A stretch of DNA of 64,000 nt from Anaeromyxobacteraceae bacterium (GTDB lineage: Bacteria; Myxococcota; Myxococcia; Myxococcales; Anaeromyxobacteraceae). Numbering within the stretch: the stretch's first letter is position 1; every line of letters begins with the position of its first letter. Of the stretch, positions 24,874 through 46,434 are shown piece after piece. The stretch covers positions 3,698,300 through 3,762,299 of the forward strand of contig JASGHJ010000002.1 in assembly GCA_047602405.1 (NCBI GenBank), written 5' to 3'. The notes below the pieces were generated by a model. The model was not told the origin of the DNA and did no database searches. It was given only the letters and a program-made list of their open reading frames with translations. Both the position numbers and the translations under genes were made by a program.

Positions 24874-25640
24874 CCGCGTTCGCCGCCGTCCTCGCGCTCG
24901 CGCTCGCCTTCTCGCCGCTCAAGGCGGAGGAAGAGAACGTCCGCGCGGGGAACGAGAAGCTCGTCGCGGGGGACCCGAAGGCCGCGCTCGAGCGCTACGA
25001 CGCCGCGGAGAAGAAGGTCGGCGCCCACCCGGAGATCGAGTACGACCGCGGCCACGCGGCCTACCGGGCCGGGCGGCTCGACGAGGCGGTCGAGCGGTTC
25101 AGGAAGGCCGCCGAGCAGGCGCCGGCGCCGCTCGCGTCCCGCGCGCTCCAGAACGCGGGCAACGCGCTCGCCGCGAAGGGTGACGAGCCCGGCGCGCTCG
25201 GCGCGTACCGCGACGCGCTCCGGAAGGATCCGGCCAACGAGGACGCGCGCTACGACCTCGAGGTGCTGCTCCGGCGGAAGGAGCAGCCTCCGCCGCCGAA
25301 GAGCGGGAAGGACCAGGACAAGGAGGGCCCGGCCCCGAAGCAGCAGCAGGGCGAGGGACAGCAGCAGGGGAAGCCCCCGCCGAAGCCCGACGACCAGGGG
25401 AAGGAGCAGCAGAAGCAGAGCCCGCAGCGCGAAGGTGAGCAGCAGGAGCCGCAGGGCGGGGAGCAGCAGCAGAAGCAGCCCCGGCCCGCGGAGGAGCGGC
25501 AGGGTGAGCGGGCGGGATCGCTCTCGAAGCAGGACGCGGAGCGGCTGCTCGACGCGCTCCGGGCGCGGGAGAAGAAGCTGCCGCAGGATCCGCGGCGGGG
25601 AAGGAGCTCGGGGAGGACGGATGTCGAACGGGACTGGTGA
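24870..25640 (+). CDS. batC: BatC-like TPR protein with Gln-rich linker
   Basis: TPRs, Q/E/K-rich tract, AERLLDAL and terminal ERDW. Confidence 0.85.
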   Translation: MTAFAAVLALALAFSPLKAEEENVRAGNEKLVAGDPKAALERYDAAEKKVGAHPEIEYDRGHAAYRAGRLDEAVERFRKAAEQAPAPLASRALQNAGNALAAKGDEPGALGAYRDALRKDPANEDARYDLEVLLRRKEQPPPPKSGKDQDKEGPAPKQQQGEGQQQGKPPPKPDDQGKEQQKQSPQREGEQQEPQGGEQQQKQPRPAEERQGERAGSLSKQDAERLLDALRAREKKLPQDPRRGRSSGRTDVERDW

Positions 25641-27528
25641 GCGGGGCTGGTCCGGCGGATCGGGCCCGGGGTGCGCCTCGGCCGGGAGCCGGGCGTGGCC
25701 GCGCGCGCTCCGCGCGGTGGCCGCGGTCGCCCTCCTCGCCGCGCCGGCGCTCGCCGCCGCGCAGGCGCGCGTGACCGCGACGCTCGACGCCGCGGAGATC
25801 GCGCTCGACGAGACGGTCACGCTCACGGTGGTCGTGCAGTCCTCCGACGCGCCGCAGGACCTCCAGTTCCCGAAGGACATGCCGTTCACCGTGCTCGGGC
25901 GCAGCCAGTCGTCCGGCTCCTCGTTCTCGCTCGGCGGCGGCGCCGGCGTGCAGATCTCGCGGACGCTCACGCTCGTGCTGCAGCTCGCGCCGAAGCAGGC
26001 CGGCCGGCTCACCATCCCGCCGATCGCCGCCATCGTGGGCGGGAGGCGCTACGCGTCGGAGCCGGTCACGCTCGACGTCCTGCCGGAGGGGCAGCGCCCG
26101 AAGGCGCAGCCCGGCCCCTCGCTGCCGCAGCGGCTGCCGGGCCCGCCCGGCCCGCGCGGCGGCGGGACCTGGCGCGGCTGGGAGCGGGACCTCCGGCTCG
26201 CGGTCGAGGCCGACCGGACCGAGGTGTGGCTCGGCGAGCAGGTGGTGGTCTCGGCCTGGTTCGTCTCTCCGGTGCCGATCGTGAACGTCGAGAACTGGAA
26301 GGAACCGCAGTTCGTCGGGTTCTGGAAGGAGCTCCTCGACTCGCCGCACCGGCTCGAGGAGCAGGTGCGGGTCATCGACGGCGTCCCGCTGCGCACGTAC
26401 CTCGTGAGCCGCTTCGCGCTCGTGCCGACGCGGTCGGGCGAGCTCACGGTCGATCCGTACCAGGCGCTCGTGAAGGTGCAGGCCGGGGTGAGCTCGCCGT
26501 TCGATCCGTTCCCGGACCTGCGGAGCGCCCGGCTGAAGAGCCAGCCGATCACCGTCAAGGTGCGGCCGCTCCCCGCCGGCGCGCCGCCCGGCTTCGCGAG
26601 CGTGAACGTGGGGACGCTGTCGCTCGAGGCGGCGGCCTCCGACGCGGCCGTGCCGGCCGGGCAGCCCGTGACGATCCGGGTGACCGCGAGGGGCGACGGG
26701 AACGTGCGGGCGCTCGCGCTGCCGCCGGTGCCCGAGCTGCCCGGGACGCGGCGGTTCGAGCCGACGCAGTCGGAGAAGGTGACGACGAAGGGCGGCCGGC
26801 TCGGCGGGGCGCGGACCGTGGAGACCGTGATCGTGCCGGAGCGGGAGGGGGAGCTCGTGGTGCCCGCGCTGAGCTGGCCCGTGTTCGACCCCGCGCGGGG
26901 CGCCTACCAGACCCTCCGGACCGAGCCGATCCACATCTCCGTGAGTCCTGCAGGTGCGGTCGCGGCCCAGACGCCCATCGCAGGGGCGAACGCGCTCGGC
27001 GCCGGGCTCCGGCCGATCCGGGCGGACGGGAGCGACCTCACCCGGACCTCGCCGCCGCCGTGGCGCAGCCCCCTCTTCGTGGCCGCGCTGGCGCTGCCGG
27101 TGCTGGGCTTCGCCGGCCTGGGCCTCGGTCTACGACTCAGGGAGCATCAGGCCGCCGGCGCCGGCGCCCGCCGCACCCGGGCCGCCGGCCGGAACGCGCG
27201 GCGCCGCCTCGCCGCCGCGCGCAGGGCGCTCGGCCGCGGCGACCGTGAGTCGTTCTTCGCGGAGGTGGAGCGCGCCCTGACCGGCTACTGCGCCGACCGG
27301 CTGCGCGTCCCCGTCGGGGGACTCACCCGTGAGGCCCTCGGGAGGACTCTCGGTGGTGCAGGTGCGCACGGGCCAGCCGTGCAGGCGCTCGACGACGCGC
27401 TCGGGGCCTGCGACGCCGCGAGGTACGGGCGCGTCGGAGTGGGCGCCGAGGAGGCGCTGCTCGGCCAGGCAGAGCAGGCGATCGCGCTGCTCGACGAGGT
27501 GGACTGGTCTTCGGGGAGGGCGGCGTGA
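25621..27528 (+). CDS. batD: BatD-like protein
   Basis: Repeated Ig-like BatD modules (GRLTIPP, SGELTV, GxGN), C-terminal TM; operon position. Confidence 0.85.
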   Translation: MSNGTGERGWSGGSGPGCASAGSRAWPRALRAVAAVALLAAPALAAAQARVTATLDAAEIALDETVTLTVVVQSSDAPQDLQFPKDMPFTVLGRSQSSGSSFSLGGGAGVQISRTLTLVLQLAPKQAGRLTIPPIAAIVGGRRYASEPVTLDVLPEGQRPKAQPGPSLPQRLPGPPGPRGGGTWRGWERDLRLAVEADRTEVWLGEQVVVSAWFVSPVPIVNVENWKEPQFVGFWKELLDSPHRLEEQVRVIDGVPLRTYLVSRFALVPTRSGELTVDPYQALVKVQAGVSSPFDPFPDLRSARLKSQPITVKVRPLPAGAPPGFASVNVGTLSLEAAASDAAVPAGQPVTIRVTARGDGNVRALALPPVPELPGTRRFEPTQSEKVTTKGGRLGGARTVETVIVPEREGELVVPALSWPVFDPARGAYQTLRTEPIHISVSPAGAVAAQTPIAGANALGAGLRPIRADGSDLTRTSPPPWRSPLFVAALALPVLGFAGLGLGLRLREHQAAGAGARRTRAAGRNARRRLAAARRALGRGDRESFFAEVERALTGYCADRLRVPVGGLTREALGRTLGGAGAHGPAVQALDDALGACDAARYGRVGVGAEEALLGQAEQAIALLDEVDWSSGRAA

Positions 27529-28274
27529 ACCTCGCCATGCTCCTCGTGGCCTCCGTCACCTCCGCGGTGCAGCCGCAGCTGGAGGCGTCCGGGCCACCGG
27601 CCGCCCGCTTCGCGGCCGCCGCCGACGCCTACCTGGCCGGCGACTTCGGCACGGCCGAACGACTCTGGGACGCGCTCGTCTCCGAGGGGTATACGAGCGC
27701 GTCGCTCCACCTGAACCTGGGGAATGCGCGGCTGCGCGCGGGCCGGAGGGGCACGGCGATCGCCAGCTACGTCCGGGCGCTCCGGCTCGACCCGGGCGAC
27801 CCCGACGCGCGCCACAACCTCGAGCTCGCCCGCGCGGCCAACGTCGACCGCCTGGTCGGGGGCACGGGACCGTCGCTCCTCGACCGCGTGGCCTCACGGA
27901 CGCCGAACGTCGCCGCCGCGCTCGCGTTCGCGGTGCCCTGGTGGCTGCTCTGGACGTGCCTGAGCGGCCGGCTCGTGACGGGGAGGCGCGCGCGCACCTG
28001 GCTCGGCGCGGGCGCGGCGCTCGCCACGCTCGGCGCGATCCTGGGCGGCTCGATCCTGCTCGCGCGTGACGCCGAGCAGCGCGAGGCGACCGCGATCGTG
28101 ATCGCACCCTCGACCGGCGTTCGCGAGGGCCCCGAGGAGGCGCTCCGCGCCACGACGATGCTGCACGAGGGGACCGAGCTGCGGGTCCTCGAGGCGCGCG
28201 GCCCTTCGGTGCGCGTGAAGCTCGTGAACGGGCTCGAGGGCTGGGTGTCGGCCCGCGACCTCGAGGCGATCTAG
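27525..28274 (+). CDS. batE: BatE-like TPR + SH3 protein
   Basis: HLNLGNA..ALRLDPGDPDARHNL, two TMs, LHEGTEL..NGLEGWV. Confidence 0.85.
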   Translation: MNLAMLLVASVTSAVQPQLEASGPPAARFAAAADAYLAGDFGTAERLWDALVSEGYTSASLHLNLGNARLRAGRRGTAIASYVRALRLDPGDPDARHNLELARAANVDRLVGGTGPSLLDRVASRTPNVAAALAFAVPWWLLWTCLSGRLVTGRRARTWLGAGAALATLGAILGGSILLARDAEQREATAIVIAPSTGVREGPEEALRATTMLHEGTELRVLEARGPSVRVKLVNGLEGWVSARDLEAI

Positions 28275-28275
28275 T

Positions 28276-29169
28276 TCAGCCCGCGGGCGCACACTGGAAC
28301 CCGAGCTGCACGCGCAGCTTGTAGGTCCCGGCCGGGAACGCGGTGGTGCGCAGGCCTCCCAGGAACAGGGCGAGGGCCGCCGCGTACTCCTGCCGGAAGA
28401 CGCGCAGGCGCACGAGCGCGTCGTGCCAGAGCTTGCCGTCGGTGGAGGCCGCCCGCTGCATGGACTGGCGCGGCTTCTCCTCCCCCGTGGCGCGGTCTCC
28501 CGGCTCCTGGGCCAGGACGGCCTTCAGGCCCAGGAACTTCTCGCCGGACTTTCTCACCGCCTCGATGGCCACCCGCTCGTGCTCGCGGATGCCCTTCTCG
28601 AGTGCCCGGCGAAAGTCTGCGGGCTCCTGTCCGGGCGGGACCGTGAAGGTGAGCGTCGCGCGGTCGGGCAGGGGCCCCGCCCGGCGGAAGAAGATCGGCG
28701 GGCGCTCGAAGACCATCCCCTTCCGGCCGATCGCCTCCGGGGCGGACCAGAGCCCGGGCCAGCGCTTGCTCCGCGGGATGAGCTTTGCCGCCGCCGGGTT
28801 CGCGAGCGCGTACGCGCCGTGCCCTGTGACCGCGGCCGCGTCCATGAGGTCGACCGACTGGTAGCCACCGCTCGGGAAGACGTTCTCGGAGCGGCCCCAG
28901 AGCTTGTTGAGGAAGCGGGCCAGCGTCGAGTTGAACTCCTGCATGAACGCGGGGAGCTCGCCCTTCGGGTCGGTGAGGACGAGGTGGTAGTGATTCGAGA
29001 GCACGCACGCGACGTGAAGCAGGATGCCGTGGCGCTCCGCCATGACGGCGAGCAGGAAGCCGAAGACCTGCCGCACCTCGGGGGTGGGCTTGAAGTAGAA
29101 GCGCCGCTCGAGACATCGATGCGTGATGAAGTGGGTGGTGCCCGGGAGCACCTGGCGTGGGGCCGTCAT
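28276..29169 (-). mobile_element. Stand-alone HUH/Y1 tyrosine transposase (IS200 TnpA/RAYT-like)
   Basis: HFITHRC, HUH motif SNHYHL, catalytic Tyr in YALANP, WP motif, C-terminal FPAGTY; no tnpB; only 1 bp from the batE stop. Confidence 0.85.
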
Positions 29170-29183
29170 GGCCTCGCGCCATG

Positions 29184-29199
29184 AGCACGCGGCGTGCCG
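29184..29199 (-). promoter_or_regulatory. Putative sigma54 (-24/-12) promoter of the transposase gene
   Basis: Minus strand CGGCACGCCGCGTGCT: GG and GC separated by exactly 10 nt, ~15 nt upstream of the ATG. Confidence 0.5.
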
Positions 29200-29313
29200 C
29201 ACGGAAACCGCTGCGGCCCAGCGACCCTCCTCCGAGCGGGGCGTCCGCGCCGCGGACCATGCGGACGCCCCGCGGACCTCTCGGTCCGCGAACGGGACTC
29301 TCGGGCGAGTCGC

Positions 29314-30681
29314 TCAGGCCACGCGCAGCTTCGCGATGAGCGCGGGCGGACCGCCGGACCGGAAGGCCTCGAGCGCCTCGTCCGCGGGCGACCGCCCGGA
29401 CTCGGCGCGCGCGCGGAGCGGCTCGAGGAACTTGCACTCGTCCTCGCCGCTGGCGGCGCAGCAGCTCTGCCGGCGCAGGCCGTCGGCCGCGGCGGCGAGC
29501 ACCTCCCCGGCGAGCGCCTGCAGCGAGCTCCCGTCCGCCGCCCGCCCCTGCAACCCGCTCCGCCCCGCGGCGTCCATGAGCGCGCGCCGCTCCTCGACCT
29601 TGAACCGCGCCACGGCCTGCCAGGCCCGCTCGCGCGCGGCCTGGTCGTAGAGGATGCCCTTCCACAGCGCGAGCAGCGCGCGGGCGTGGGCGTGGTCGCA
29701 GCCGTCGGCGGCGCGCACCTCCACGACGCCCTTCACCCGGACCTCCGGGAAGACGACCGTGAGGTGATCCTCCCAGTCGCTCTGGGTCGGCCGCTCGCCG
29801 TCGATGCCGCGGAGCATGAAGTCCCGGAACGTCGCGCCCTTCGGGTCGAGGTAGCGGTCGTGGCGCCGCACGAAGATCATCGGGACGTCGAGCGCCCACT
29901 CGACGTACGCGCGGTAAGGATCGTCGAGGAAGCCGGGCGCGAAGGCGAAGGCGAGGAGCCCGCAGCGGGCCGGATCGGTCTCGTTCCAGACCGCCGTCCG
30001 GTAGGACTTCCACCCCACCTCGCGGCCGTCGATGATCGGCGAGTTGGCGAAGAGGGCGACCACCGCGGGCTGCACGGCGAGGGCGGTCCGCAGCTTCTCC
30101 CCCATGTCGCGCGCGTCCGAGAAGTCGAACGACGCCTGCGCCGACGCGGTCATCGCCATCATGTCCTCGCCGAGCCGGCCGTGCGCGGCCAGCCAGGGGC
30201 GCATGATCTTGTAGCGATCCTTCGGCATCCAGGGGTTCGACCGGGGCGTGCCGAAGGGCCGGTAGCCGGTGGCGAGGAGCTCGACCGAGAGTTCTTCGCC
30301 GATGTGCGCGCAGTGGTCCTCGAGGTGCTCGCGCAGCTCCTCCGCGGCCGCGTGGACGTCCGGGAACGGACGGCCGGACAGCTCGAGCTGGCCCCCCGGC
30401 TCGAGCGAGACCGTGAGTCCTTCTCGCTGCGCCGCGATGATCCGGTCCTCTTCCATGAACGGCGTGAAGCCGAAGCGCCCGAAGCCCCTCAGCATCGCGG
30501 CGACGCCGGCAGGGCCCTCCCAGGCGACCGGGTCGGTCGTGCCCGAGCGCATGAGCACGACCTCGTGCTCCAGGCCGACCTTCCAGCCCTGGCGGGGGCG
30601 CTCCCGTGCACGGAACCAGGCGACGAGGTCGTCGGGCCCGCGCACCGGCGGGGTCTCACGCGTGCGGGCGTCGAGGGACAT
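29314..30681 (-). CDS. gshA: Glutamate--cysteine ligase (GCS2/plant-like)
   Basis: VGLEHE, SLEPGGQLELSG, MPKDRY, ALFANSP, HLTVVFPEVRVK, EVRAAD. Confidence 0.92.
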   Translation of the reverse strand: MSLDARTRETPPVRGPDDLVAWFRARERPRQGWKVGLEHEVVLMRSGTTDPVAWEGPAGVAAMLRGFGRFGFTPFMEEDRIIAAQREGLTVSLEPGGQLELSGRPFPDVHAAAEELREHLEDHCAHIGEELSVELLATGYRPFGTPRSNPWMPKDRYKIMRPWLAAHGRLGEDMMAMTASAQASFDFSDARDMGEKLRTALAVQPAVVALFANSPIIDGREVGWKSYRTAVWNETDPARCGLLAFAFAPGFLDDPYRAYVEWALDVPMIFVRRHDRYLDPKGATFRDFMLRGIDGERPTQSDWEDHLTVVFPEVRVKGVVEVRAADGCDHAHARALLALWKGILYDQAARERAWQAVARFKVEERRALMDAAGRSGLQGRAADGSSLQALAGEVLAAAADGLRRQSCCAASGEDECKFLEPLRARAESGRSPADEALEAFRSGGPPALIAKLRVA

Positions 30682-30786
30682 GGGGACGCGGAATCTACCC
30701 GCGGGTGACGCGCTCCGCCACGGGCATGTCCGGGGTGCCCGTGCGTTCTACCCTTGAACGACTCTGGGACCTACGAGGCGATCCGG

Positions 30787-30815
30787 TTGCACGCCCCCCG
30801 GACGCCGCCTATCCT
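30787..30815 (+). promoter_or_regulatory. Putative sigma70 promoter of the S41 peptidase (TTGCAC-N17-TATCCT), flanked by two motif sites
   Basis: 17-bp spacer; motif copies at 30756-30770 and 30846-30862. Confidence 0.55.
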
Positions 30816-30892
30816 GAGCTTTTTCGGGGATTTCTCGCCCCTTGGACGTCCGAGAGTCGTTCGCCGCGCCTCCACCCCCGCAAAGAGCCACC

Positions 30893-33800
30893 ATGACCCG
30901 CCCGTTCCGGCCCCTCGCCACCATCGCCCTCGTCGCCGCGCTCGCGCTCGGCACGGGCGCGCACCTCGTCCGCGCCGAGGCGCGGCAGGAGGAGGACCGC
31001 GGGCGCACCGCCGCGGAGCTCGCCTACCGGGAGAAGGTCCCGTCCCAGGCCCGCCCCGACGCGGCGGGCGAGTACAAGCTCGACAAGCTCCAGATCCTCT
31101 CGAAGGTGATCCTGTCTCTCAAGGACTCCTACGTCGACCCGACCCGCATCGATCCGAAGGCGATGGTCGTCTCGGCGCTCGAGATGGTCGAGAAGACCGT
31201 CGCCGAGGTGATGGTCCAGGGCGACGCGAAGTCGTCGAAGCTCGTCCTCACCGTCGGCTCCGCGAGCCGCGAGCTCGACATCTCGGGCGTCGACTCCATC
31301 TGGAAGATCCGCACCGTGCTCGGCGACGCGATGGGCTTCATCCAGGAGCACCTCGTCGCGCACGACGACCTCCGGCAGATCGAGTACGCCGCCGTGAACG
31401 GCATGCTCTCGACGCTCGACCCGCACACCATCCTGCTCGAGCCGAAGGCCTACAAGGACATGAAGACCCAGACCCGCGGCGAGTTCGGCGGGCTCGGCTT
31501 CGTCATCGGCATGCGCGACGGCAACCTCACCGTGATGCGCGTGCTGCGCGGCACGCCCGCCCAGAAGGCGGGCATCAAGGCGAAGGACGTCATCACCAAG
31601 ATCGAGGAGCAGTCCACCGCCGAGATGGACGTGAACGACGCGGTCGACCGCCTCCGCGGGAAGCCCCGCACGCCGGTCGCGATCACCATCGCCCGCAACG
31701 CACAGGACGCGAAGCGCCTCACGCTCGTCCGGGAGATGATCAGAATCGACACCGTCCCGCAGGCGAAGCTCCTCGAGGGCAACGTGGGCTACCTGAAGCT
31801 CACCGGCTTCTCGGCGAACTCCCGCGCCGACGTCGAGCGCGTCGTCCAGGAGGAGCGCCAGCAGGCGGGCGGCAAGCTCGCCGGCCTCGTCCTCGACCTG
31901 CGCGGCAACCCAGGCGGCCTGCTCGAGCAGGCGGTCCAGGTCTCGGACCTCTTCCTCTCCTCCGGCACGATCGTGAAGACCGTCGGCGGCGGCCGCACCC
32001 TCGAGCTCAAGGAGGCGAGCGCCGACTCCGACGACCTCGCGAACCTCCCGCTCGTCGTGCTCGTCAACAACGGGTCGGCGTCCGCGAGCGAGAATCGTGG
32101 CGGGCGCGCTCAAGAACAACGGCCGCGCCCTCGTCATCGGCCGCCAGACCTTCGGCAAGGGCTCGGTGCAGGTGCTGCAGGACTTCGCCGAGCCGGGTCG
32201 CCCGGGCGAGGAGGCGGCGCTCAAGCTCACCATCGCGCAGTACCTCACCCCGGGCGACGTCTCGATCCAGGAGGTCGGCGTCACCCCCGACGTGCTGCTC
32301 CTCCCCGGCCGCGCGCTCAAGGAGCAGGTGAACTTCTTCGCCCCGCCCCGCTCGATGGGCGAGGTCGACCTCGACCGCCACCTCTCGAACCCGTCGCAGC
32401 GCGACGAGGAGCAGGAGCGCGCCGAGGCCCGCAAGCGCCGCGTCGAGAAGTCGGCGCTCGAGCTCCGCTACCTGCTCGACGAGAAGGAGGACTCGGTCGC
32501 GAAGGCGCTCAAGAAGGCCGCCACCGAGGACGCCGCCGAGAACGCCCACACCGATCTCACGCCCGAGCAGGTCGAGGACGAGGAGGCCGACGCCGACCCC
32601 GACCGCGTGGTGGAGGACTACCAGATCAGGTTCGCGCGCGACCTCCTGCTCAAGGCCCCGTACAACGATCGCGCGCGCATGCTCGAGGGCGCGAAGACGC
32701 TCGTCGCCGAGCGCCACGAGGACGAGGAGCGGCGCCTGGAGGCCCGGCTCAAGGACATGGGCCTCGACTGGTCCGAGCCCGCGAAGACGCCCGCCGGCGC
32801 TCCGAAGGCCGTCGTCACCTTCTCTCCGCCGGCGGCGAAGGACGCGCGTGCGGGCGAGGTCTACCCGTGGACGGTGACCGTCGAGAACCGGGGCGACGCG
32901 CCGTTCCGGCGCCTGCGCGCCTGGACCTCCGCCGAGAAGAACCCGCTGCTCGATCGCCGCGAGTTCATCTTCGGCACCGTCCGCCCGGGTGAGCGCCGCT
33001 CGTGGACCGTGCCCGTGCGCATGCCCCGCAGCCTCGACAGCCGCCGCGACGAGGTGTCCCTCCGGCTCGAGGACGACTCCGGGAAGCCCATCCCGGAGGT
33101 CGCGACCTCGGTCGGCGCGGTCGAGATCCCGAAGCCGCAGTTCGCGTTCAGCGTGCAGGTCGAGGACGCCGCGGGCGGGAACGGCGACGGCCTCGCGCAG
33201 CGCGGCGAGACCTTCGCGTTCCGCGTCGACGTCCGGAACGCCGGCTCCGGCGCCTCCGGCCGCAAGACCTACGTCGCGCTCCGCAGCCTCGGGGACGACA
33301 AGCTCTTCGTGAAGAAGGGCCGCGAGGTCATCGGGACGCTGAAGCCTGGCGAGGCGAAGACCGCCCGCCTCGAGGTCGAGCTGCGCAAGGGCTCGCACGC
33401 CGAGAACGTGCCGTTCCGGCTCGCCATCGTGGACGAGAAGACCGACGAGTACCTCGTCGACAAGATCGAGTGGCCGGTCGCGAAGGACGCGACGCCGCGC
33501 ACGCCCGCCTCGGGCGCCGTCCGGCTCGACGCCGACGTCACCATCCACGGCGGGGCCTCCGAGACCTCGCCGGCCGTCGCGTCCGCGAAGAAGGGCGCCG
33601 TGCTGCCCGTCGACGCCCGCTTCGGCGACGCGTACCGGGTCGAGTGGCAGAAGGGCCGTTTCGGGTTCGTGCCGGTCGCGCAGGCGAAGCCGGTGAAGGC
33701 GCCCCGCTCCGGCGCGGTCGCGATGGCCTGGCAGCGCGAGCCGCCGCGCATCGCGCTCGCGCCTGACCCGGCGAAGGGCGCGCCCGTCGTCGAGGGCGAC

Positions 33801-34106
33801 ACGATGAAGCTCTCCGGCTCCGCCACGGTGCCGGCCTCGGCGGACGACTCGACGCGGCTCCGGGACGTCTTCATCTACGTGAACGACCAGAAGGTCTTCT
33901 TCCGGGTCGTGCCGGACGAGAAGGCCTCCACCCGCCTCGACTTCCAGGCCGACCTGCCGCTCAAGCCCGGGCAGAACACGGTGACCGTCGTGGCCCGCGA
34001 GGACGAGGAGTTCCAGACTCGCCGCTCGCTCGTGGTGTTCCGGCGCGCCCCGCCGGCCGTCGCGCAGGACGGCTCGCGCGAGCCGCCCAAGGCGCAGGCG
34101 CAGTAG
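30893..34106 (+). CDS. S41 (CtpA-like) serine peptidase with PDZ and C-terminal beta domains (MXAN_5808-like); frameshift at ~32093
   Basis: LDPH, FGGLG, DLRGNPGG, SASASE|IVAGAL, TFGKGSVQ; removing one A from gagaatcgtg joins ORFs 30842-32992 and 32097-34106. Confidence 0.9.
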
Positions 34107-34116
34107 GCGCAGCCCG

Positions 34117-34181
34117 AAAACGACGCACGGACCCAGGGAAGGCGCGGCGCTCCGCCCCCTCCGGGGAGTCCGTGCGCTCGT
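34117..34181. terminator. Long hairpin downstream of peptidase; U-tract on minus-strand side
   Basis: cgcacggac (34124-32) pairs with gtccgtgcg (34168-76); AAAA at 34117-20. Confidence 0.45.
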
Positions 34182-34185
34182 CCTG

Positions 34186-34339
34186 ACGACTCTCGGTCGT
34201 CCAACATGAACGACTCTCGGTCGTGCAGCTCGCCTGACGACTCTCGGTCGTCGAAGGTCGACGACTCTCGGTCGTCGAAGGTCGGCGAACGACTCTCGGT
34301 CGTCCAAGGGCCGGGGGGCCCGGAACGACTCTCGGTCGT
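34186..34339. repeat. Array of six identical 15-bp quasi-palindromes ACGACTCTCGGTCGT with 9-21 bp spacers
   Basis: Copies start at 34186, 34210, 34237, 34261, 34289, 34325; spacers 9, 12, 9, 13, 21 bp. Confidence 0.97.
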
Positions 34340-34493
34340 CGAGGAGTGCCCGGAACCCCCCGCCGTGATCCGGCCGATACCGCCCGACACCGCCCTGGCG
34401 AGCGTGCGCTCGGCAGGTGGTATCGGCGACCTGCCTCACTCGCCCGTCCCCAAGTTCGCGAAGCGCCGGATCGCCCGGTAGAATTCCGCTCGC

Positions 34494-37400
34494 ATGGCGG
34501 AGGCTCCGAAGACCGCCTCCGTCCCATCCTCCACCTCCGGGAAGAGGACAGGGTCGGGGTTCGAGCTGCGCCTCGAGCGCGGGACGGCACACGTGCGCCT
34601 CGCGCGCGTGCCGGTCGTCGACGGCCTCGAGCTCGAGGTGCTCGACCTGCTCGTCCCGGACGTCCGCTTCCCCTTCGACGTCGCCGCGGGCTCCGGGCAG
34701 TTCCGGCACCGACTCTCGGACCTCGACGAGCTCGGCGTCGCCGCCGCGCCCGAGCTCGCGGAGCGCACGGTCGCCGCCGCGGGCCCGGAGGCGCTCGGGC
34801 TCCTCGACCTCCGGATCGCGTTCCGGGACGGCTTCGCCGAGCTCGCCGGCCGGCTCGCGGGCGGCACCCGCTTCACGCTCCGCGCCGGGCTCGTCCCCGC
34901 CGGCGACCGCGGCGTCGCGGTCGTCCTCCACGCCCCGCGCCTCTACGGCCCGGCCGCCCTCCCCGAGGGCGCCCTCGTGCACGCCGGCCGCCGCCTCCTC
35001 GCGGCGCTCGGCGAGGACGCCTTGCCCGAGGATCCCGTCTCCCGGCTCCTGCGCCGCGTGCTCGCGCCGCGCGGCTGGAAGATCCCGCGCGCCGTCGACG
35101 TCCGGCTCGCGCGCGCCGAGATCGTCGCGGGCGCCGCGCGGCTCGGCTGGTCGCGCGCGGCCGTGCCCGCGGCCGTCTCCGCCGACCCGGACCTCCTCGC
35201 GGCCGAGGAGGGCGCCCGCACCTTCGCCGCCGCCGAGGCGCTCCTCGAGCGCGGCGACCACGAGGCCGCCCGCGAGGCGTACCTCGCGACGCCCGCCGCG
35301 GCCGGCCACCCGTTCGCCGCCGAGCGGCTCCTGGGCCTGCTCGCGCTCGACGACCGCTTCCACGACGAGGCCCTCGACCTCGCCCAGGCCTGGCTCGCGC
35401 GCCGCCCCGGCTTCCCGGCCGCGCTCGGCGCCGAGGCCGCGGTGCGCATCGCCCGCGGCGAGGAAGCCCGCGCCGCCCGCGCCCTCGCGGAGCTCGCGGA
35501 GGGCGCCGCCGCACGCGGCGAGGTCTTCTCCGCGCTCGCCGCCGCCGAGACCGCGTTCGGCCTCACCGGCGCGGACGCCGCCGTCGCGCGGCGCGCCGCC
35601 GAGGTCGCCCTGCAGGTCCGCCGCGACCACGTCCCCGCCCTGCGCGCGCTGCGCGACCTCGCCCTCGCCGCCGGCGACCGCGAGGCGCTCGTGCGCGCGA
35701 GCCGCCGGCTCGTGGCGTACGACGCGGACCCCGCCCACAAGGCCCGCGCCCACGCCCAGCTCGGCGAGCTCCTCCTCGGCACCGACCCCGCCGCGGCGCG
35801 CCTCCACCTGGACCAGGCGCTCCGCCACGCGCCCGACGAGCCCCAGACCCTGCGCTCGCTCGCCCGCGCCTGCGAGGCGGCCGGCGAGCACCTCCGCGCG
35901 GTGCGCGCGCTCGACCGGCTCCGCGAGCTGCACCTCGCCCACGGCGACCGCGCGCTCGCGGCCGGCGCCGCCTACGAGGCCGGCGCGCTCTGGGACGGCC
36001 CGCTCGACCACGCCGAGAACGCGCTGCTCCGCTTCCGCGAGGCGGCGGAGCTCGCGCCCTCCGCCGAGGCCCACGAGCGCGCCGCCGGCGCCGCCACCCG
36101 CGCCGGCCAGTGGGCCGAGGCCGCCGACCACCACGCCGCGGTCCTCGCCGCGCTCGCCCGCGGGGCGCCCGGCCCGGCCGGCCTCGCCGCGCGCACCCGC
36201 GTCGCCCTCGCGGCGATCGCCGAGGAGCGCCTCGCCGACCTCCCCGCCGCGGCGGCCCACCTCGAGGCTGCGGTCGCGCTCGAGCCCGACCGCGGGGACC
36301 TGTGGCGCCGGCTCGCCGCCCTCGATCGCACCCTCGGCCGCACCGCCGCCCTCGCCGCCGCGCTGGAGCGCGTCGCCGCCCTCTCGCCGGACCTCGCCGA
36401 GCGGGCCGCCGCGCTCGCCGAGGCCGGCGAGGCCGCGCTCGCCCTCGGGCTCCCCGCCGAGGCGCGCGGCCGGTTCGTCGCGGCGCTCGCCGCCGACGAG
36501 CGGAACCGCACCGCCCTCGACGGCCTCGCGCAGCTCGCAGCCGCGCGCGGCGACGCCGCCGCCGAGCGCGACGCCCTCGCCCGCCTCCTGCCGCTCGCCG
36601 CCTCCGCCGACGAGACCGCCACCCTCCAGGACCGGCTCGCCGAGGCCTGCGAGAAGGTCGGGGACCTCGCCGGCGCGCAGCGCGCCCTCGCCGCCGCGCG
36701 CGCCGCCGCGCCGACCGCGGCCCGCCTCGAGGCCTCGCTCCGCCACGCCCGCCGCACCGGCGACGTGCCCGCCCACGCCGCGCTCCTCGCCGAGCGCGCC
36801 GCCGCCGCCGCGGCCCGCGGCGACGCGGCGCTCGCCACGACGAGCTGGCTCGAGCGGGCCCGCCTCCTCGGAGCGACCGATCCCGCCCAGGCCCAGGCGG
36901 CGCTCGCCGAGGCCCGCGCCGCCGCGCCGGGCGATCCCGAGGTGCTCCGGGCCCAGGCCGCCTTCGGCGAGGCGAACCGCGAGCCCCGGCTCGCGCTCGG
37001 CGCGCTGCGCGCGCTCCTCGCCCAGGATCCCGCCGACGCCTCCGAGCTCGAGGTCCGCGCCGGCCGCGCGGCGCTCACCGCCGGCGAGCCGACCGCCGCC
37101 CGCGAGCACGCCGAGCGCGCCCTCGGGCGCGACGCGCCCGGCGCCGGCGAGCTCCTCGCCGACATCCTCGACCGCACCGGCGACGAGGCCGGCCGCGCCG
37201 AGCTGCTCGAGCGGATCGGCCGTCCCCTCGAGGCCGCCCGCCTCCACGAGCGCCACGGTGACCGGCCCCGTGCCATCGCCGCCCTCGAGCGCGCCGCCGC
37301 CGACCCCGCCTCGGCCTCCGAGGCCCTCGGGCTGCTCGCGGAGCTCCGCCTCGCCGAGGGAGACCGCCGCGGCGCCGCCACCGCGCTCCTCGCGCTCGCG

Positions 37401-40400
37401 GCCCGCACGCCCGGCCGCGCCGGCGCGCGCCTCGCGCTGCGCGCCTTCGAGGCCGGCGGCGACGCCTCCCGGGCGCTCGACCTCGCCACCGAGCGCGACC
37501 CGACCTTCGCCCCTGCCCGCGCCCGCCGCGCCGCCCTCCGGGCCGACGACCCGCGCGGCGCGCTCGCCGACGCCGAGGCCGCGCTCGCGGGCGACGAGCT
37601 GCCCCCCGCCGAGCGGATCGGCCTCGTCGCGATCGCCGCCCGCGCCGCCGAGGCACTCGGCGACGACGACCGCGCCGGCGCGCACCTCGCCACCCTCGCG
37701 CGGGCCACCCCGGACGACGCCTCGGTCCTCCGCCGCCTCGCGGCCCTCGAGCGCCGCGCCGGGCGCGCCGAGGCGCTCGCCGCCACGCTCGAGCGGCTCG
37801 TCCCCTTCGCGACGCCCGCCGAGGGCGTCGCGCTCCGGCTCGAGCGCTCCGAGCTCCTGGCCGCCTCCGACCCGGCCCGCGCCGCCGCGCTCGCCGAGGA
37901 GGCCCTCGCCCTCGACCCCGACTCGACCCCCGCGCTCGCGGCCCTCGCGTGGCCGCCGCGGTCCGCCGGGAGCCCGCCCGCCGTTCGCGCCGACCGGCTC
38001 GGCCGCCTCGCCGCCCGGCCCGACGTCCCCGCCGCCGAGGCCGCCCGGGCCCACGGCGAGCGCGCGCGGCTCCTCGCCGGGCTCGGCGACGCCGCGGGCG
38101 CGCTCGAGGCCGTCCGCGCCGCCACCGCCGCGGGCGCCGTCGAGGACGAGCTCACGCACGCGCTCCGCGCCGACCTCGCCCGCCGCACCGGGGATCGCGC
38201 CGAGGAGGCGCGGGCCCTGCTCGCGCTCGCGCACGCGGCCCGTCGGCGCGGCGAGCCCACCGCCGGCGAGCGCCTCGCCGAGGCCGGCCTCGCCGCCCGC
38301 GCGGCCGGCGTCGACGGCGCCGAGGACGCGCTCCTCGCCGCGCGCACGGCCGGCGTCGAGAAGGAGACCGCCCGGCCGGTGCTCGAGGCGCTCGTCGAGC
38401 TCGCCCGCGCCCGCGGCGACGGCGCCGCGGAGCGCGAGGCCCTCGCCGCCCTCGTGCCCCACCTGCCCACCGGCGCGCGCCCCGAGGTGCTCGTCCGGGT
38501 GGCCCGCCTGGCGCTCGAGGCCGGCGACGCCGCCTTCGCCCGGGCGGCCGCCGACGAGGCGCGCACGCTCGCGCCGCGCGACCCCGTCGCCGTCGAGTGC
38601 GCGCGCGCCGCCGCCGCCGCGGAGGGCGACCACGCCGCGGTCGCCGAGCGCCTCGACGAGCTCGCCGCCCTCGAGCCGGCGACGGCCGGCGCCCGCCAGC
38701 TCGAGCGCGCCCGCCTGCTCGCCGCCCTCGGCCGCGCGGAGGACGCCGACCGCGCCTTCGAGGCCGCCCTCGCCGCGCTCGCCCCCGACCGCGCGCTCGC
38801 CGACGAGCAGGTCCGGCACCGCCGCGCCGCCGGCCTCGCCGACCCGGGCGCGCCGCTCGAGGCCTTCGCCCGCCGCGCCGGGGAGCCCCGCGTCGCCGCC
38901 CGCGCCCTCCGCACCGCCGCGGCCCTCGCGCTCGAGGCCGGCGACTGGGACGCCGCGCTCCGGCGCGCCCGCCGCACCGCGGCCCGCACCCAGGACGATC
39001 CTTGCTTCGCGGGCCCGCTCCTCGCGCGCATCCTCTACCTGCGGGGCTCCGCCGCCGAGGCGCTCGTGCTCCACCGGCGCCTCCTCGACGCGCCCGAGGG
39101 CGCGCTCGCCCCGGAGGACCGGGTCGCGGTCCTCTCCCAGGCCGCCGAGCTCGCCGAGGATCTCGGCGACCGCGAGCTCGCCGCGTCCGCGCTGACCCGC
39201 CTCCTCGCGCTGCGCCCCGCCGACGTCGACGCCGCCGGGCGGCGCTTCGCGGTCGACCCCGACCGCCGCCGCGCCATCGAGGGGCTCGCCGCCGCGGCCG
39301 ACCGCACCCGCAACCTGCACCGCCGCGTCGCCGCGCTCCAGAAGGCCGGCGAGGCCGCCCTCACCGAGCTCGAGGACCGCGCCCTCGCGGACCGGCTCCT
39401 CCGCCGCGCCCGCGCCGAGGCCGAGGTCGACCCGGCCCTCGCCGCCCGCACCGCCCGCGAGCGCGCGGCGGTCGTGCGCGCCGCGCTCGGCGTCGGCTCC
39501 GACGCGTTCCTCGACGCCCTCGAGGAGTCCGCCGCCGCGGTCCAGGCGACCGGCGACCGCGCCGGCGCCCGCGCCCTCTACGCCGAGACGGCCGCCCTCC
39601 TGCGCGAGCGCGGCCAGCTCGCCGACGCCGCCCGCCTCCTCCTCCAGCTCGACGCGCTCGCCGCCGCCGACGGCGACTTCGACGGCTCCGCCGCGTACGC
39701 GCGCGAGGCGGGCCTCGCGCTCCGCGACGCCGGCCGCGCCGGCGAGGCCGCCGAGGTCCTGCGCCGCGTCGTGGCGACGAACCCGGGCGACGCCGAGGCG
39801 TTCGCGGCCCTCGAGGAGCTCCTCGCCTCCGGCGGCGACGCCGGCTCCCTCGTCGAGCTCCTCTCGCTCGCCGCGGCGAGCGCCGCGCCCGGCCCGGACC
39901 GCGCCGCGCTCCTCGTGCGGCTCGCCGAGGTCCACGCCCGCGCGGACGACCGGGTCGCCGAGGAGGGCGCGCTCCGCTCGGCCCGCGAGCAGGTGCCCGG
40001 CCACGCGGTCGCGACCGAGCGCCTGCAGGCGCTCCTCGCCGCCGAGGAGCGGTTCGGCGAGCAGGCCGAGCTCCTCCTCGAGCGCGCCGCGGCGGAGCCC
40101 TCCGCCCGCGCCGCGCTCCGCAGGGAGGCCGCGGCGCTCTACTCGCGCTCGGCCGATCCCGGCGAGCGGGCCCGCGGCCTCGACCTCCTCGTGGAGGCCG
40201 CCCGCGAGAACCCCGAGGATCTCGACGCGCTCCGCGAGGCCTCCCGCGCGCTCGTGGCCGCGGGCAGGCGCGAGGAGGCGGTGCCGTTCCTCTCGGCCAT
40301 CGTGCTCGCCAACCCGGACGACGAGGCCGCCGCCGCGCTCCTCGCCGACGCCTGGGCCGACCGCCCGCTCGAGCAGGCCGGCCTCTTCCTCTCCCGCGCC

Positions 40401-43400
40401 GCCGCCGCGAAGGGCGAGCTGCGCGCCTTCCGCCTCGGCGAGGCCGCGAAGGCGCTCGCCCGCGCCGGCGAGGAGGGCCGCGCCCGGGAGACCCGGCTCC
40501 TCGCGTTCGAGGCCTGGCCCTCCGACACCGCCGGGTTCACCGCCGCGCTCCGCGAGGCCGCCGGCGACGCCGACCGGCTCGACCGCGTCCTCGCCGCCCG
40601 CGCCCGCGGCGTGCCCGCCGAGGCCGCCGCCTGCCACCGCGCCCGCGCCGACGCGCTCGTCGCGGTGGGCGCGCTCGAGCGCGCCGCGACCGCCTACGAG
40701 GAGGCGCTCGTCGCCGCCCCGGACGACCCGGTCCTGCTCGCCGCGCTCGCCGCCACGCTCGCGGCCGCCCGCGGCGACGCCGCCGCCTCCGACGCCGACC
40801 ACCGCCTCGTCGCGCTCTCGGACGCGAAGCCGGGCAGCGTGCCCCCGTCCGCGGAGTCGGCCTCCCGCTTCCGCCTCGGCATCGCCGCCTGGGCCGACGG
40901 CCGCCCCGCCGACGCCATCGGCGACCTCGAGCGCGCCCTCCTCCTCACGCCCTCCGATCCGCGCGCCGGCTCGGCCTGGACCGCGCTCGCCGACGGCCAC
41001 GCCGCCCTCGGCCACGGCGAGGCCGCCCTCGCCGCCGCCCGCGGGCGGGCCGACCGCGCCGTCGCGCTCGGACTCGGCCCCGAGCGGCGCCTGGCCCTCG
41101 AGGCCGGCGCCGCGCTCGCGGCCCGCTTCGCCGACGAGGGGCCCGACGCCGCCGAGGTCCTCGACGCGCTCCTCGCGGTGCGGGTGCAGGCGGGCGATCC
41201 GCCCGAGGAGCTCGGCGAGCTCGCCCGCCGCGCGGCCGCCGCGCTCGAGCTCGCCGGCCAGCCGGTCCGGGCGAAGGTCGCCCTCGCCCGCGCCGGCCTC
41301 ACCGCCTCGGGCCCGCTCGCGGCGCCCGCCGTCCCGGCGGAGCTCGAGGTCGAGGTCGAGCCGCCCGCGCCCGCCGCCCCGGCCGCCCAGACCGCCCCGG
41401 AGCCCCTCGCCGCTTCGGCGCCGCCGGCCGCCGCCTTCGGCGCGGGCCGCGTGCAGGAGGCCGGCGAGCGCGCCCTCGCGGCGACCGAGCCGGCCGAGCG
41501 CGCCACCCGCTTCGTGGAGCTCGCCGAGGAGCTCCACCGCGCCGCCGCGCCGGACGAGGAGATCCGCTCGGCGCTCGACCTTGCCGCCGACGCCGACCCC
41601 GACGCCCCCGGCCCGTGGCGCGCCCGCGCCCGCATCGAGGGGGAGCTCGGCGACTCGGAGGCCGCCGCGCGCGCGCACCTCGCCGTCGCGATCCGCGCCG
41701 AGGGCGAGGAGGCCACCGCCGCCGCGCTCGAGGCCGCCCGGCTCTTCGCCGAGGCGGGCGACCACGTCGACGCCGCGCGCGCCTTCCGCGCCGCCCACCA
41801 CGCCGCCCCGGAGGCCGTGCCGGTCGCGCTCGCCGAGTCCGAGGAGGCGCTCGCCGCCGGCGACGCCGCCGCGGCCGCCGAGAAGGCCCTCTCGGTGCCG
41901 CTCGAGGTGCTCCCGCCGGTCGCCCGCTCCGGCCACCTCCGCCGCCTCGCGCAGGCGCTCGACGAGGCCGGCCGCATGACGTCCTCCGACGCCGTCTACG
42001 CCGACCTCTTCCGCGAGGACCCGGCGGACGCCGTCGCCTTCACCCGCGCCGCGGACCGCGCCTTCGAGCGCGGCGGCGCCGACGCCTGGCTCGAGGCCGC
42101 CGCGACGCACGAGGCCGCCCTCGGCAGCTGGGGCGACGCCGATCGCCGCCGCGACCTGCGCTACGCCCGCGGCGAGGTGCTCGCCGCGGCCGGCCGCCTC
42201 GAGGAGGCCCGCGCCGCCTACCTCGGCGCGCTCGAGCTCGACCCCACCCACGAGCCGACCCAGACCTCGCTCGCGGCGCTCGACGCCCGCACCGACGACT
42301 GGGCCGCGCTCGCCGCCCGCGTCGCCCGGGAGGCCGCCGACGCCGGGACCGGCGACGCCGCCGGCCTGCACCTGCGCGTCGCGCGCATCCTGCACGACCG
42401 GCTCGACGACGGGGCCGGCGCGATCCTCTCCTACCGCGCCGCCGTCGAGGCCGCGCGCGAGAGCCCCGCCCCCGCCGCGCGCCGCGTCCAGGAGGAGGCC
42501 GAGGCCGCCCTCCACGCGCTCGGCGCGCCGATGAAGGCCGCCGAGCCGGCGGCCCTCGACGACTCCGAGCCCACCGCCGAACACCTGCTCGAGGCGCCCG
42601 AGGGTGACCCGGTGGCCGAGGTGCTGCGCGCCCAGGCCGACGAGGCGACCGGCGTCGCCCGCGCCGAGCTCCTCGAGCGCCTCGCCGGCCACCTCGAGCG
42701 CGCCGGCGACCGCGCCGGGGCCGCCGACACGCTCCTCCTCGCGCTCGCCGCCGACCCGCACCGCGAGCTGACCCACGCCTGGCTCTCCGGCCTCGTCGAG
42801 GACGACCCCGAGCGCCTGGAGCGCGCCCGCGCCCTGCGCGCCGAGGCCGGCCTGCCCGAGGAGCGCGAGGAGCGCTCGACCGGAGACTTCCCGCCGGTCT
42901 TCCGGACCGACCGGACCACCGGAGACTTCACGGCCCCCGACCCCGAGGTCGAGGGCCGGGAGACGAGGACGACCGGAGACTTCCCGCCGGCGGAGGGAGG
43001 GGCGGATTCGGATCCGGAGACGGTTCCGGAGACGGATTCGGATTCGGAGACGGATTCGGAGACGGATTCGGAGACGGATTCGGAGACGGAATCGGAGACG
43101 GATTCGGAGACGGAGACGGAGACGGATTCGGCCACGGATACGGATCCGGAAACGACTGCCGCAGCGGTTTCGGATGCCGCCCCGGACCCCACTCCCACGC
43201 CCGAGCGCTCCACCCTCGACGACTTCCCGGAGTCCGCGCTGGAGGAGGCGCTCGCGGCAGGGCTCAGCCGGTCGGCGAGGCCGAGCCCGTCTCCGATTCC
43301 GATTCCGTCTCCGATTCCGTCTCCGATTCCGTCTCCGTCTCCGTCTCCGATTCCGTCTCCGTCTCCGTCTCCGATTCCGCCTCCGTCTCCGATTCCGCCT

Positions 43401-45928: not shown

Positions 45929-46434
45929 TGCGGCGCGCGCCCGCGCTCGCGCTCCTCGCCCTCTCCGCCTGCACGTCCGGCGAGGCGGCCACCTGCCCGG
46001 GCCAGCCGGTCGGCACGTTCCGCTTCGAGGTCGTCGGGACCTATCACCCCCCGGACGACCCCGCGCCGGCGCTCTTCTGCGAGAAGGCCGCCACCGCCGA
46101 CTCGAGCGTGGTGGGGACCTTCACGGCGACGCTCTCCTCCGAGCCGGCGCTCGGGACGGCCGCGCTGTGCGTGGCCGGCGCGGGGAGGCTCGCCCAGCCG
46201 TACTTCGGGCGCGTGGAGGCGGGGACCTACGTCCTCACCGCCGCGGGCGGCCTCGGCGTCCTCGACGCGTGCGGCGCCAACTGCACGGCGCAGGCGACGC
46301 TGCGCGTCGAGGGCACGGTCGCGGCGGGCGGGTTCGTGGGGACGCTCACCGAGACCTTCCAGGACCCGCAGGGCGCCTGCGGCGCGTGCGCCTTCCCCTG
46401 CGAGAAGACCTACCCGCTGACGGGCGCTCCGTGA
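45928..46434 (+). CDS. Cys-rich lipoprotein
   Basis: Lipobox LSAC, CGANC and CGACAFPC; TGATG coupling to the giant protein. Confidence 0.75.
   Translation: MRRAPALALLALSACTSGEAATCPGQPVGTFRFEVVGTYHPPDDPAPALFCEKAATADSSVVGTFTATLSSEPALGTAALCVAGAGRLAQPYFGRVEAGTYVLTAAGGLGVLDACGANCTAQATLRVEGTVAAGGFVGTLTETFQDPQGACGACAFPCEKTYPLTGAP

Follow-up and report, generated by a model that had tools for sequence, protein, structure and literature searches.

The REPtron is reportedly, after work by Nunvar in 2010 and Ton-Hoang in 2012, a RAYT/TnpA-REP gene flanked by REP/BIME sequences, and the structure of TnpA-REP (4er8) is said to stem from Messing in 2012. The present analysis concerns a gene for a Y1 HUH (RAYT-like) protein and a short DNA motif clustered around it in an Anaeromyxobacteraceae bacterium, within a stretch of 64,000 nucleotides hereafter called the window (GenBank assembly GCA_047602405.1, contig JASGHJ010000002.1, positions 3,698,300 to 3,762,299 of the forward strand). 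For systems of the REPtron kind Corneloup 2021 (PMC8266576) is cited, and how RAYT-type HUH enzymes make and spread REP-like repeats, and which role domesticated transposases play, are still open questions (PMC8266576, PMC6006769); these papers, like the others cited by accession, are drawn on in part.

TIRtrons, with their TIRYT genes, are RAYT-like genes flanked by non-REP terminal inverted repeats (TIRs) that may form dimers or clusters (Di Nocera 2013, PMC3733652). The TnpAY1 subclasses 2.1 and 2.3 comprise longer proteins in which the motifs NH[YF]H and WE occur and a C-terminal extension is conserved; subclass 2.3 is multicopy, and the sections drawn on report no REP-like repeats for either subclass (Quentin 2018, PMC6006769). 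As far as these portions of both papers go, TIRtron/TIRYT corresponds to the long-tailed subclasses 2.1 and 2.3 (PMC3733652, PMC6006769). The motif in the window is likely the end-recognition sequence of a multicopy, Anaeromyxobacteraceae-restricted Y1 HUH (RAYT/TIRYT-like) family of ~297 amino acids, and the halo of copies around the HUH gene of the window likely grew by local accumulation.

The genome holding the window (G000) has 6,156,721 bases in two contigs, C1 (2.39 Mb) and C2 (3.76 Mb), and the window lies at C2:3.70-3.76 Mb. G015, G026, G004 and similar numbers denote relatives and L numbers individual loci; P0 is the HUH gene of the window and P1-P6 are further paralogs in G000. The strict core of the motif is ACTC[AT][CG]GG. 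All copies in the window share this asymmetric core with the local flanks GAACG and [TA]CG, giving the window flavour GAACG-ACTC[AT][CG]GG-[TA]CG.

A preliminary description, made from the sequence letters, had reported a quasi-palindromic site clustered over ~8 kb of genes and intergenic DNA, and the clustering was borne out. At up to 2 mismatches ACGACTCWCGGWCGT has 33 matches genome-wide, 12 of them at window positions 27239-34723 and 21 in the remaining 6.15 Mb; that background predicts ~0.03 matches per 8 kb, and 6 were observed in the zone beyond a six-copy array. The exact 15-mer occurs six times in the genome, always in this array, and 10 of the 16 genomic occurrences of the 9-mer GACTCTCGG fall in the zone. 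Allowing up to 3 mismatches, the window yields 22 matches, a number that none of 100 shuffles attained (11.84 +/- 3.55 in shuffled sequence). G000 contains 119 strict cores, 17 of them within +/-6 kb of P0, 10 near P4 and 1 near P1, and core density stays at background level except at HUH loci. Chance or composition as the origin of the cluster was ruled out by the shuffles, the genome counts and the codon resampling given below, and a genome-wide REP family was ruled out because the exact motif is confined to the array. Every copy listed in the preliminary description was found, at or within 3 bases of its position. The copies are as follows.

26935-26949, minus strand: batD copy, 3 mismatches, codons GTG AGT CCT
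27132-27143, plus strand: batD copy ACGACTCAGGGA, codons CTA CGA CTC AGG GAG
27239-27253, minus strand: batD copy, 1 mismatch; the exact 15-mer stands here in G026 and in the contigs of 4/4 metagenome runs
27343-27357, plus strand: batD copy, 2 mismatches, codons AGG ACT CTC GGT GGT
27659-27673, plus strand: batE copy, 2 mismatches, codons GAA CGA CTC TGG GAC
29277-29304, plus strand: left end of the P0 element, CCTCTCGG at 29277-29284 and then GACTCTCGG at 29296-29304, both inverted relative to the HUH gene
30281-30295, minus strand: gshA copy, 3 mismatches, codons GAA GAA CTC TCG GTC
30407-30421, minus strand: gshA copy, 3 mismatches, synonymous choices GGA and ACG on a G-L-T motif kept in 10/11 orthologs
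30758-30772, plus strand: ACGACTCTGGGACCT, 2 mismatches, in the divergent gshA-peptidase intergenic region, left half of an inverted pair
30846-30860, minus strand: ACGACTCTCGGACGT, 0 mismatches to the degenerate 15-mer, right half of the inverted pair
34120-34134, plus strand: a seventh, degenerate copy, ACGACGCACGGACCC, with 3 mismatches; G026 has a good copy, AACGACTCTCGGATCC, at the homologous site
34186-34339, plus strand: six exact copies of ACGACTCTCGGTCGT in the intergenic region between the peptidase gene and the giant gene
34709-34723, plus strand: giant-gene copy, 2 mismatches, codons CGA CTC TCG GAC

The array copies start at 34186, 34210, 34237, 34261, 34289 and 34325 (spacings 24, 27, 24, 28 and 36); the array amounts to ~200 bp of extra DNA compared with G015, which has no HUH gene here, and counts 6 copies in G000 and 4 in G026. 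Concerning the inverted pair, the copy at 30758 arose by substitution at a position whose length is conserved in G015, and G015 has a gap of ~13 nt where the copy at 30846-30860 sits. The palindromic character holds for the array, where 5/6 units fold as hairpins of 5-8 bp with the loop TCTCG (-4.3 to -9 kcal/mol), but not for the four dispersed copies that were folded, which were no more stable than shuffles. No known RNA family of the Rfam type matched at E up to 1 in 26000-36000, and no sigma-70-like promoter or intrinsic terminator pattern was found in 34000-34600. Between the two halves of the inverted pair (window 30790-30840), GATCCGGTTGCA and TATCCTGAGCTTTTTCGGGGATTT are conserved in G026 and largely in G015; they are probably the real promoter or operator elements.

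The motif is associated with the HUH gene family across Anaeromyxobacteraceae. HUH-family matches were found in 35/37 genomes of the genus survey (0-13 per genome), G000 itself carrying seven full or nearly full paralogs. At 17/19 HUH loci from six other genomes a same-strand core lies a few hundred bases downstream, often in arrays of 2-7 units, the exceptions being L034 without a core and L036 with an opposite-strand copy only. Among 80 further loci, nearly all with Anaeromyxobacter or Anaeromyxobacteraceae in the title, a same-strand core stands at +100 to +500 in 53 and an inverted core at -250 to -60 in 46; the +200 bin holds 68 same-strand cores versus 1 opposite, the -200 bin 57 inverted versus 0 direct, and downstream arrays reach up to 8 units. 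The core varies slightly from paralog to paralog, the family consensus being ATT-ACTCTSGG-TCNGGG, and part of the loci lacking the strict core carry variants such as CCTCTGGG.

P2, P3, P5 and P6 are units of ~1.45 kb resembling insertion sequences (IS), 94-99% identical, which use the core CCTCTGGG. Their similarity ends at CCCCCCCWKCCCCAGAGG on the left and at its inverse on the right, and since it stops at the motif, the motif marks the ends of a transposable unit. The right end of P2 is duplicated, and P6, the fourth IS-like copy, matches in two pieces and is therefore probably frameshifted; its 3' untranslated region (UTR) diverges. These copies, with G/C-rich terminal inverted repeats, lie at the following positions.

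C2:3257160-3258044
C1:2221352-2222236
C2:2523920-2524795
C2:581814-582687

The preliminary description had offered, as one of two options, that the copies are substrates of the adjacent HUH nuclease; the association of motif and gene family speaks for this option, and binding and cleavage of the motif by the HUH protein are predicted by analogy with related enzymes.

Comparison of syntenic loci gave a second line of evidence, on the following genes of the window, called by Pfam and GC content at third codon positions (GC3) unless otherwise indicated.

25180-27528, plus strand: batD
27525-28274, plus strand: TPR/SH3 gene, 'batE'
28276-29169, minus strand: Y1 HUH (RAYT-like) gene, P0, 297 aa; coding open reading frame (ORF) by GC3, supported by NCBIfam and an AlphaFold2 (AF2) model
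29314-30681, minus strand: GCS2-type glutamate-cysteine ligase gene, 'gshA'
30893-34106, plus strand: S41/PDZ peptidase gene
34494-44132, plus strand: giant gene, 3212 aa

The order batD-batE-gshA-peptidase-giant is conserved in the genus. At 13 syntenic loci without the HUH gene only 3 strict cores were found in 250 kb, compared with 17 in G000 and 14 in G026; G015, the closest HUH-free relative (~75% amino-acid identity), has 0. The presence of the motif thus depends on the presence of the HUH gene. P0 has neither a 3' UTR nor right-end repeats, because the HUH stop codon abuts the batE stop. Its left end is in place: CCTCTCGG lies 108-115 bp upstream of the HUH ATG, in agreement with the inverted copy at -112 to -125 in other HUH loci, and the second left-end copy directly follows the gshA stop codon. 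In G004 (L043, G004:C17:1-11726) another HUH paralog, 40% identical, occupies the same batE|gshA junction, accompanied by a canonical downstream pair and a solo copy in the peptidase-giant intergenic region. Orthology of this copy with P0 was excluded by a midpoint-rooted tree of 91 distinct HUH sequences, left from 111 once duplicates, partial hits and those containing stops had been removed, in which it belongs to a G004-specific clade (support 0.92-0.998) and P0 groups with G000/G026 paralogs (0.89). As the two fall in separate clades, the junction was hit twice independently, and insertions seem to recur in the gap where the convergent genes gshA and batE end.

The P0 protein carries the HUH motif as H60/H62 and the catalytic motif Tyr120-x3-Asn-Pro; an alignment of 38 homologs shows no variation at H60, H62, Y120, N124 or P125, and the full ~297 aa are conserved. 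It matches NCBIfam REP_Tyr_transpos with E 1.2e-11 and 44.7 bits, below the curated cut-off of 80, and many homologs bear the JGI label 'REP element-mobilizing transposase RayT'. Its AF2 model (pLDDT 90.6) has as best structural match Escherichia coli TnpA-REP bound to a REP hairpin (4er8_A, Foldseek TM 0.71); in VIA, 4er8_A gave Z 14.3 over 155/165 residues, followed by IS608 TnpA with Z 8.9. At E up to 10, Pfam lists Y1_Tnp alone for the protein and nothing for its C-terminal half, which was modelled by itself with low confidence (pLDDT 70.4, pTM 0.35). The protein is intact and under purifying selection: the G026 ortholog is 82% identical, with dN/dS 0.32 between the two (neighbouring genes 0.075-0.21).

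Compared with REPtrons, this system likewise has a Y1 HUH enzyme with Y-x3-NP whose top structural match is TnpA-REP, and a gene flanked by its own short inverted repeat, with tandem clusters and a paralog-specific flavour. Several features differ. REPtron repeats are palindromic hairpins after a GT[AG]G tag, whereas the consensus here contains no GTAG; REPs are dispersed extragenically in high copy genome-wide, whereas the exact 15-mer here is found in the array alone; the protein has roughly double the length, its C-terminal half being conserved, and genomes hold 0-13 matches to it, near-identical copies among them; and motif copies also lie inside genes, made by substitution. A search for stem covariation in fixed register across 257 distinct family sites found none, although a variable register could conceal one, and without a family-wide covarying hairpin the motif copies are not REPs in the strict sense. 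The likeness to TIRtrons lies in the terminal inverted repeat CCCCCCCWKCCCCAGAGG, which with its inverse bounds four copies, and in arrays of up to 8 units. The shared motif published for some TIRs, and not claimed to be universal in the sections drawn on, is GGGGWSAS (PMC3733652); the family here has ACTCTSGGTCNGG, and single copies such as GGGGAGAC occur among the cores in G000. The C-terminal helix-turn-helix domain given for subclass 2.1 (Bac_DnaA_C, HTH_23 or HTH_28; PMC6006769, in the portions drawn on) was undetected here by Pfam at E up to 10.

With IS200/IS605 elements (IS608, ISDra2) the family shares the Y1 HUH fold and short ends that define the ~1.45-kb unit. It differs in having Y-x3-NP instead of Y-x3-Q, 297 aa instead of ~130-150, and inverted ends instead of same-strand subterminal hairpins; no tnpB was seen in the HUH loci inspected. 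Rickettsia RPE, in-frame intragenic REP/RPE repeats (PMC3733652, in the sections drawn on), are comparable as short repeats in functional genes, and an array in a kinase gene beside P4 resembles them, but the eight intragenic copies of the window add no residues and replace existing codons. A plasmid-type iteron origin was rejected on the irregular spacing and on a GC content of 0.69-0.78 in the 1-kb bins of 26001-35000, with no AT-rich stretch, and no plasmid Rep family was found in the eight window ORFs scanned. Neither Anaeromyxobacter nor Myxococc- is mentioned in the main texts and supplements examined of PMC3733652 and PMC6006769, and no description of the HUH family or motif was found among the papers listed by literature searches. 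New here are the core motif, the restriction to Anaeromyxobacteraceae and, most notably, the local halo that substitutions wrote into genes.

The eight intragenic copies have a directed, length-neutral origin. Protein alignments contain no indels at any of the sites, and the copies are therefore not insertions. The preliminary description had noted that they use rare codons, as if the DNA motif overrode codon choice, and both points proved correct. Across 773,875 codons of 1,279 long ORFs, Arg is encoded by CGA in 2.7% of cases, Glu by GAA in 2.9%, Gly by GGA in 2.7%, Leu by CTA in 0.3%, Thr by ACT in 0.6% and Ser by AGT in 0.5%. When codons for the same proteins were resampled from genome usage in 2000 trials, the cores averaged 0.135 per trial, with 3 as the highest count, compared with 8 observed. 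Rare codons are combined with amino-acid replacements, and the changes toward the motif start from a partial match every time. In batE, about six nucleotide changes turned GCG CGC GCC TGG GAG (the G015 state) into GAA CGA CTC TGG GAC, with A>E, A>L and E>D; at 30281 in gshA, Ser (GGC>TCG) replaces a Gly kept in 8/9 other orthologs (Glu in G032). The giant-gene copy lies on the conserved peptide FRHRLSDL, where TCC>TCG is common to G000 and G026 only and CGG>CGA occurs in G000 only.

Halos also occur at other paralogs. Around P4 (C2:3486236-3487126), arrays of 3-4 units, mostly with a 21-bp period, occupy four intergenic regions over 6 kb and are conserved in G026. The convergent histidine kinase gene next to P4 contains an in-frame four-unit array in the HisKA-HATPase linker, at 8516-8592 of L052 (G000:C2:3479000-3491000), between HisKA (aa 246-307) and HATPase_c (aa 390-499). 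This array encodes the Ser/Pro/Gln-rich stretch PSGSLPSPSQSLPDAGPSQSSTVPSESRG, is also present in L053 of G026, and looks like an in-frame repeat insertion in a loop. The paralog of G001, G002 and G007 (the L014-16 lineage) has 8-11 cores over ~8 kb, mainly as intergenic pairs, and 11 members of the 80-locus set carry three or more cores far out in their flanks, some of these cores within ORFs. The motif flavour of each halo is that of its own paralog. No halo was found at the recently transposed P2, P3, P5 and P6, nor at P1. These distributions are suggestive of a link between halo and right-end loss (P0, P4, L014-16), to which L056, with a right end and 11 distal copies, runs counter. Away from HUH genes, solo copies of the window-type motif were found at G000 C1:1978065-1978079 (minus strand, 1 mismatch) and, intergenically, at G026:C5:404702 (L017 9903-9917, 0 mismatches); rare dispersal in trans seems possible.

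Under the proposed end-recognition role, a canonical family member would have one inverted ACTCTSGGTCNGG ~110-125 bp upstream of its start and, 200-500 bp beyond its stop, between one and eight direct copies, and some members would still be mobile as ~1.45-kb IS-like units. P0 would be an old resident that entered the gshA/batE junction before G000 and G026 diverged, and it would have retained its left end and lost its 3' UTR and right end while its protein stayed intact under purifying selection. The window flavour would then have built up in the ~8 kb around it, intergenic copies by insertion or tandem duplication, as in the six-copy array, and genic copies and one promoter position as point substitutions turned near-matches step by step into the motif. 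Like its homologs TnpA-REP and IS608 TnpA, the HUH protein may bind the 13-nt core and nick and rejoin one strand through Tyr120. The halo substitutions may have been fixed because they create HUH sites, the fixing force being either selection that favours a zone of many HUH-binding sites close to the gene or a repair bias that follows near-cognate nicking.

Several observations weigh against this proposal. The Pfam Y1_Tnp match of the P0 protein reaches only E 0.0011, under its cut-off; the strict core is absent downstream in 27/80 loci and upstream in 34/80; the six-copy array stands 5 kb upstream of the HUH gene, off the canonical downstream place; the halo orientations are mixed (11 plus, 6 minus); and the missing fixed-register hairpin sets the family sites apart from the substrates of solved Y1 enzymes. 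In addition, the motif cores are not significantly better conserved than their genes between G000 and G026, in an underpowered comparison that counts neither for nor against; counted by eye, there are 5 differences in 105 motif nt compared with ~9 expected, and 1 in 56 core nt. With no significant extra conservation of the cores, this comparison gives no sign of ongoing constraint. The idea that inversions had carried the array over from the missing right end was also considered and dropped, because two nested inversions would be needed while gene orders and orientations remain ancestral.

A bolder extension of the end-recognition proposal, put forward tentatively, is that a resident HUH protein which no longer moves writes its own motif into the ~8 kb around it, housekeeping coding sequence included, either as a domesticated multi-site binding factor or through a nick-and-repair drive. 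The first version, if true, would be a transposase-derived counterpart of ParB and parS, and either version, if true, would amount to protein-directed local rewriting of genome sequence at single-codon resolution, which was not found described for Y1 enzymes in the sections drawn on of PMC6006769, PMC3733652, PMC5581495 and PMC8266576. Mobile copies, resident copies and local halos occur together in one genus, where syntenic relatives that lack the HUH gene serve as natural controls; each halo copy preserves, at codon level, the path from near-match to motif, and selection for binding and rewriting by the nuclease are therefore testable against each other. For annotators this is also a caution that, in high-GC genomes, rare codons occurring in clusters can be traces left by the protein of a nearby mobile element.

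A possible but doubtful alternative is that the halo has no function, the nuclease nicking near-cognate sequence near its gene and repair from strong copies converting it stepwise in a cis-acting motif drive, with intergenic arrays growing by slippage or mini-element insertion. The origin of copies at existing partial matches, overriding codon bias and conserved residues, is what such a drive predicts, and it agrees with the fast turnover of the array (6 versus 4 copies), with the occurrence of halos at the resident, diverged copies P0, P4 and the L014-16 lineage but not at the four recently transposed copies or P1, and with the in-frame kinase array. The site at 34711, however, came about by two separate synonymous steps in different lineages, which suits point mutation with a fixing bias over a single conversion tract; this stepwise history favours single mutations plus a fixing force. 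Such a repair bias is also undocumented for Y1 enzymes in the portions drawn on of PMC6006769 and PMC8266576, and distal copies stand at some canonical loci as well, as the 11 of L056 illustrate.

That the copies are operators or enhancer sites of a transcription factor (the HUH protein or another) governing the peptidase, giant and gshA genes, with the HUH link secondary, is improbable. The best copies do lie in promoter-bearing intergenic regions (the inverted pair 30758/30846 and the direct array upstream of the giant gene), the 21-bp period of the P4 arrays in four successive intergenic regions equals two helical turns, and an inverted pair in L014 stands immediately upstream of a gene. 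Apart from the HUH gene, however, the halo loci share no regulator gene, the spacing of the window array is irregular, eight copies lie within coding sequence and the canonical copies mark the ends of mobile units. The motif is moreover missing from the same promoters in 13 HUH-free genomes and is therefore not an ancestral control element of these genes.

The main option of the preliminary description, in which a dimeric protein with no relation to the HUH gene loads onto a zone that organises the chromosome, as at parS or otherwise, is very improbable: several copies within a few kb, local, orientation-independent and partly intragenic against codon preference, together with the palindromic array units, recall parS/ParB, but the dispersed copies are not palindromic, the motif is not conserved across the genus, is missing from syntenic HUH-free genomes and tracks the HUH gene family, similar halos surround certain HUH paralogs at unrelated chromosomal places, canonical parS-like sites cluster on the other contig, the window lies at neither GC-skew extreme, and a scan of eight ORFs between 23.8 and 38 kb detected no ParB-like domain.

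Further observations concern the genome and the neighbouring genes. Three parS-like sites, TGTTCCACGTGGAACA and two variants with 2 mismatches to canonical parS, lie within 2.6 kb at G000 C1:1054926-1057502 and probably form the true origin-proximal centromere cluster. Mapping relative to oriC and ter by GC skew, as the preliminary description had proposed, gave a cumulative skew maximum at C2:1.68 Mb, with the window at neither extreme; the skew curves of the two contigs would suit one single chromosome. Window position 64000 is C2:3762299, the exact end of contig C2.

Among sequencing runs, none of RNA was listed as containing this DNA, and metagenome contigs matched only small shares of it (0.13-0.18). 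The contigs of four such runs come from a G026-like relative ~93% identical, a lineage present in sludge metagenomes. In the S41 peptidase gene, an extra A at window 32093 in G000 (GAGAATCG versus GAGATCG in G026) leads to two frames within the S41 domain, the parts being in one frame in five checked relatives (L013, L038, L041, L043, L048). The extra A is absent from the contigs of 3/4 metagenome runs, the X6 contig stopping at that point, and it marks either a pseudogene or an assembly error. The giant protein has only weak TPR/ARM-like Pfam matches in its first 1169 aa. Its gene and the region just past it (35001-46000) are rich in short tandem repeats and show in most bins a GC content of 80-86% and a strongly negative skew of -0.11 to -0.18, a pattern from which bin 43001-44000 departs with GC 0.71 and skew -0.29.

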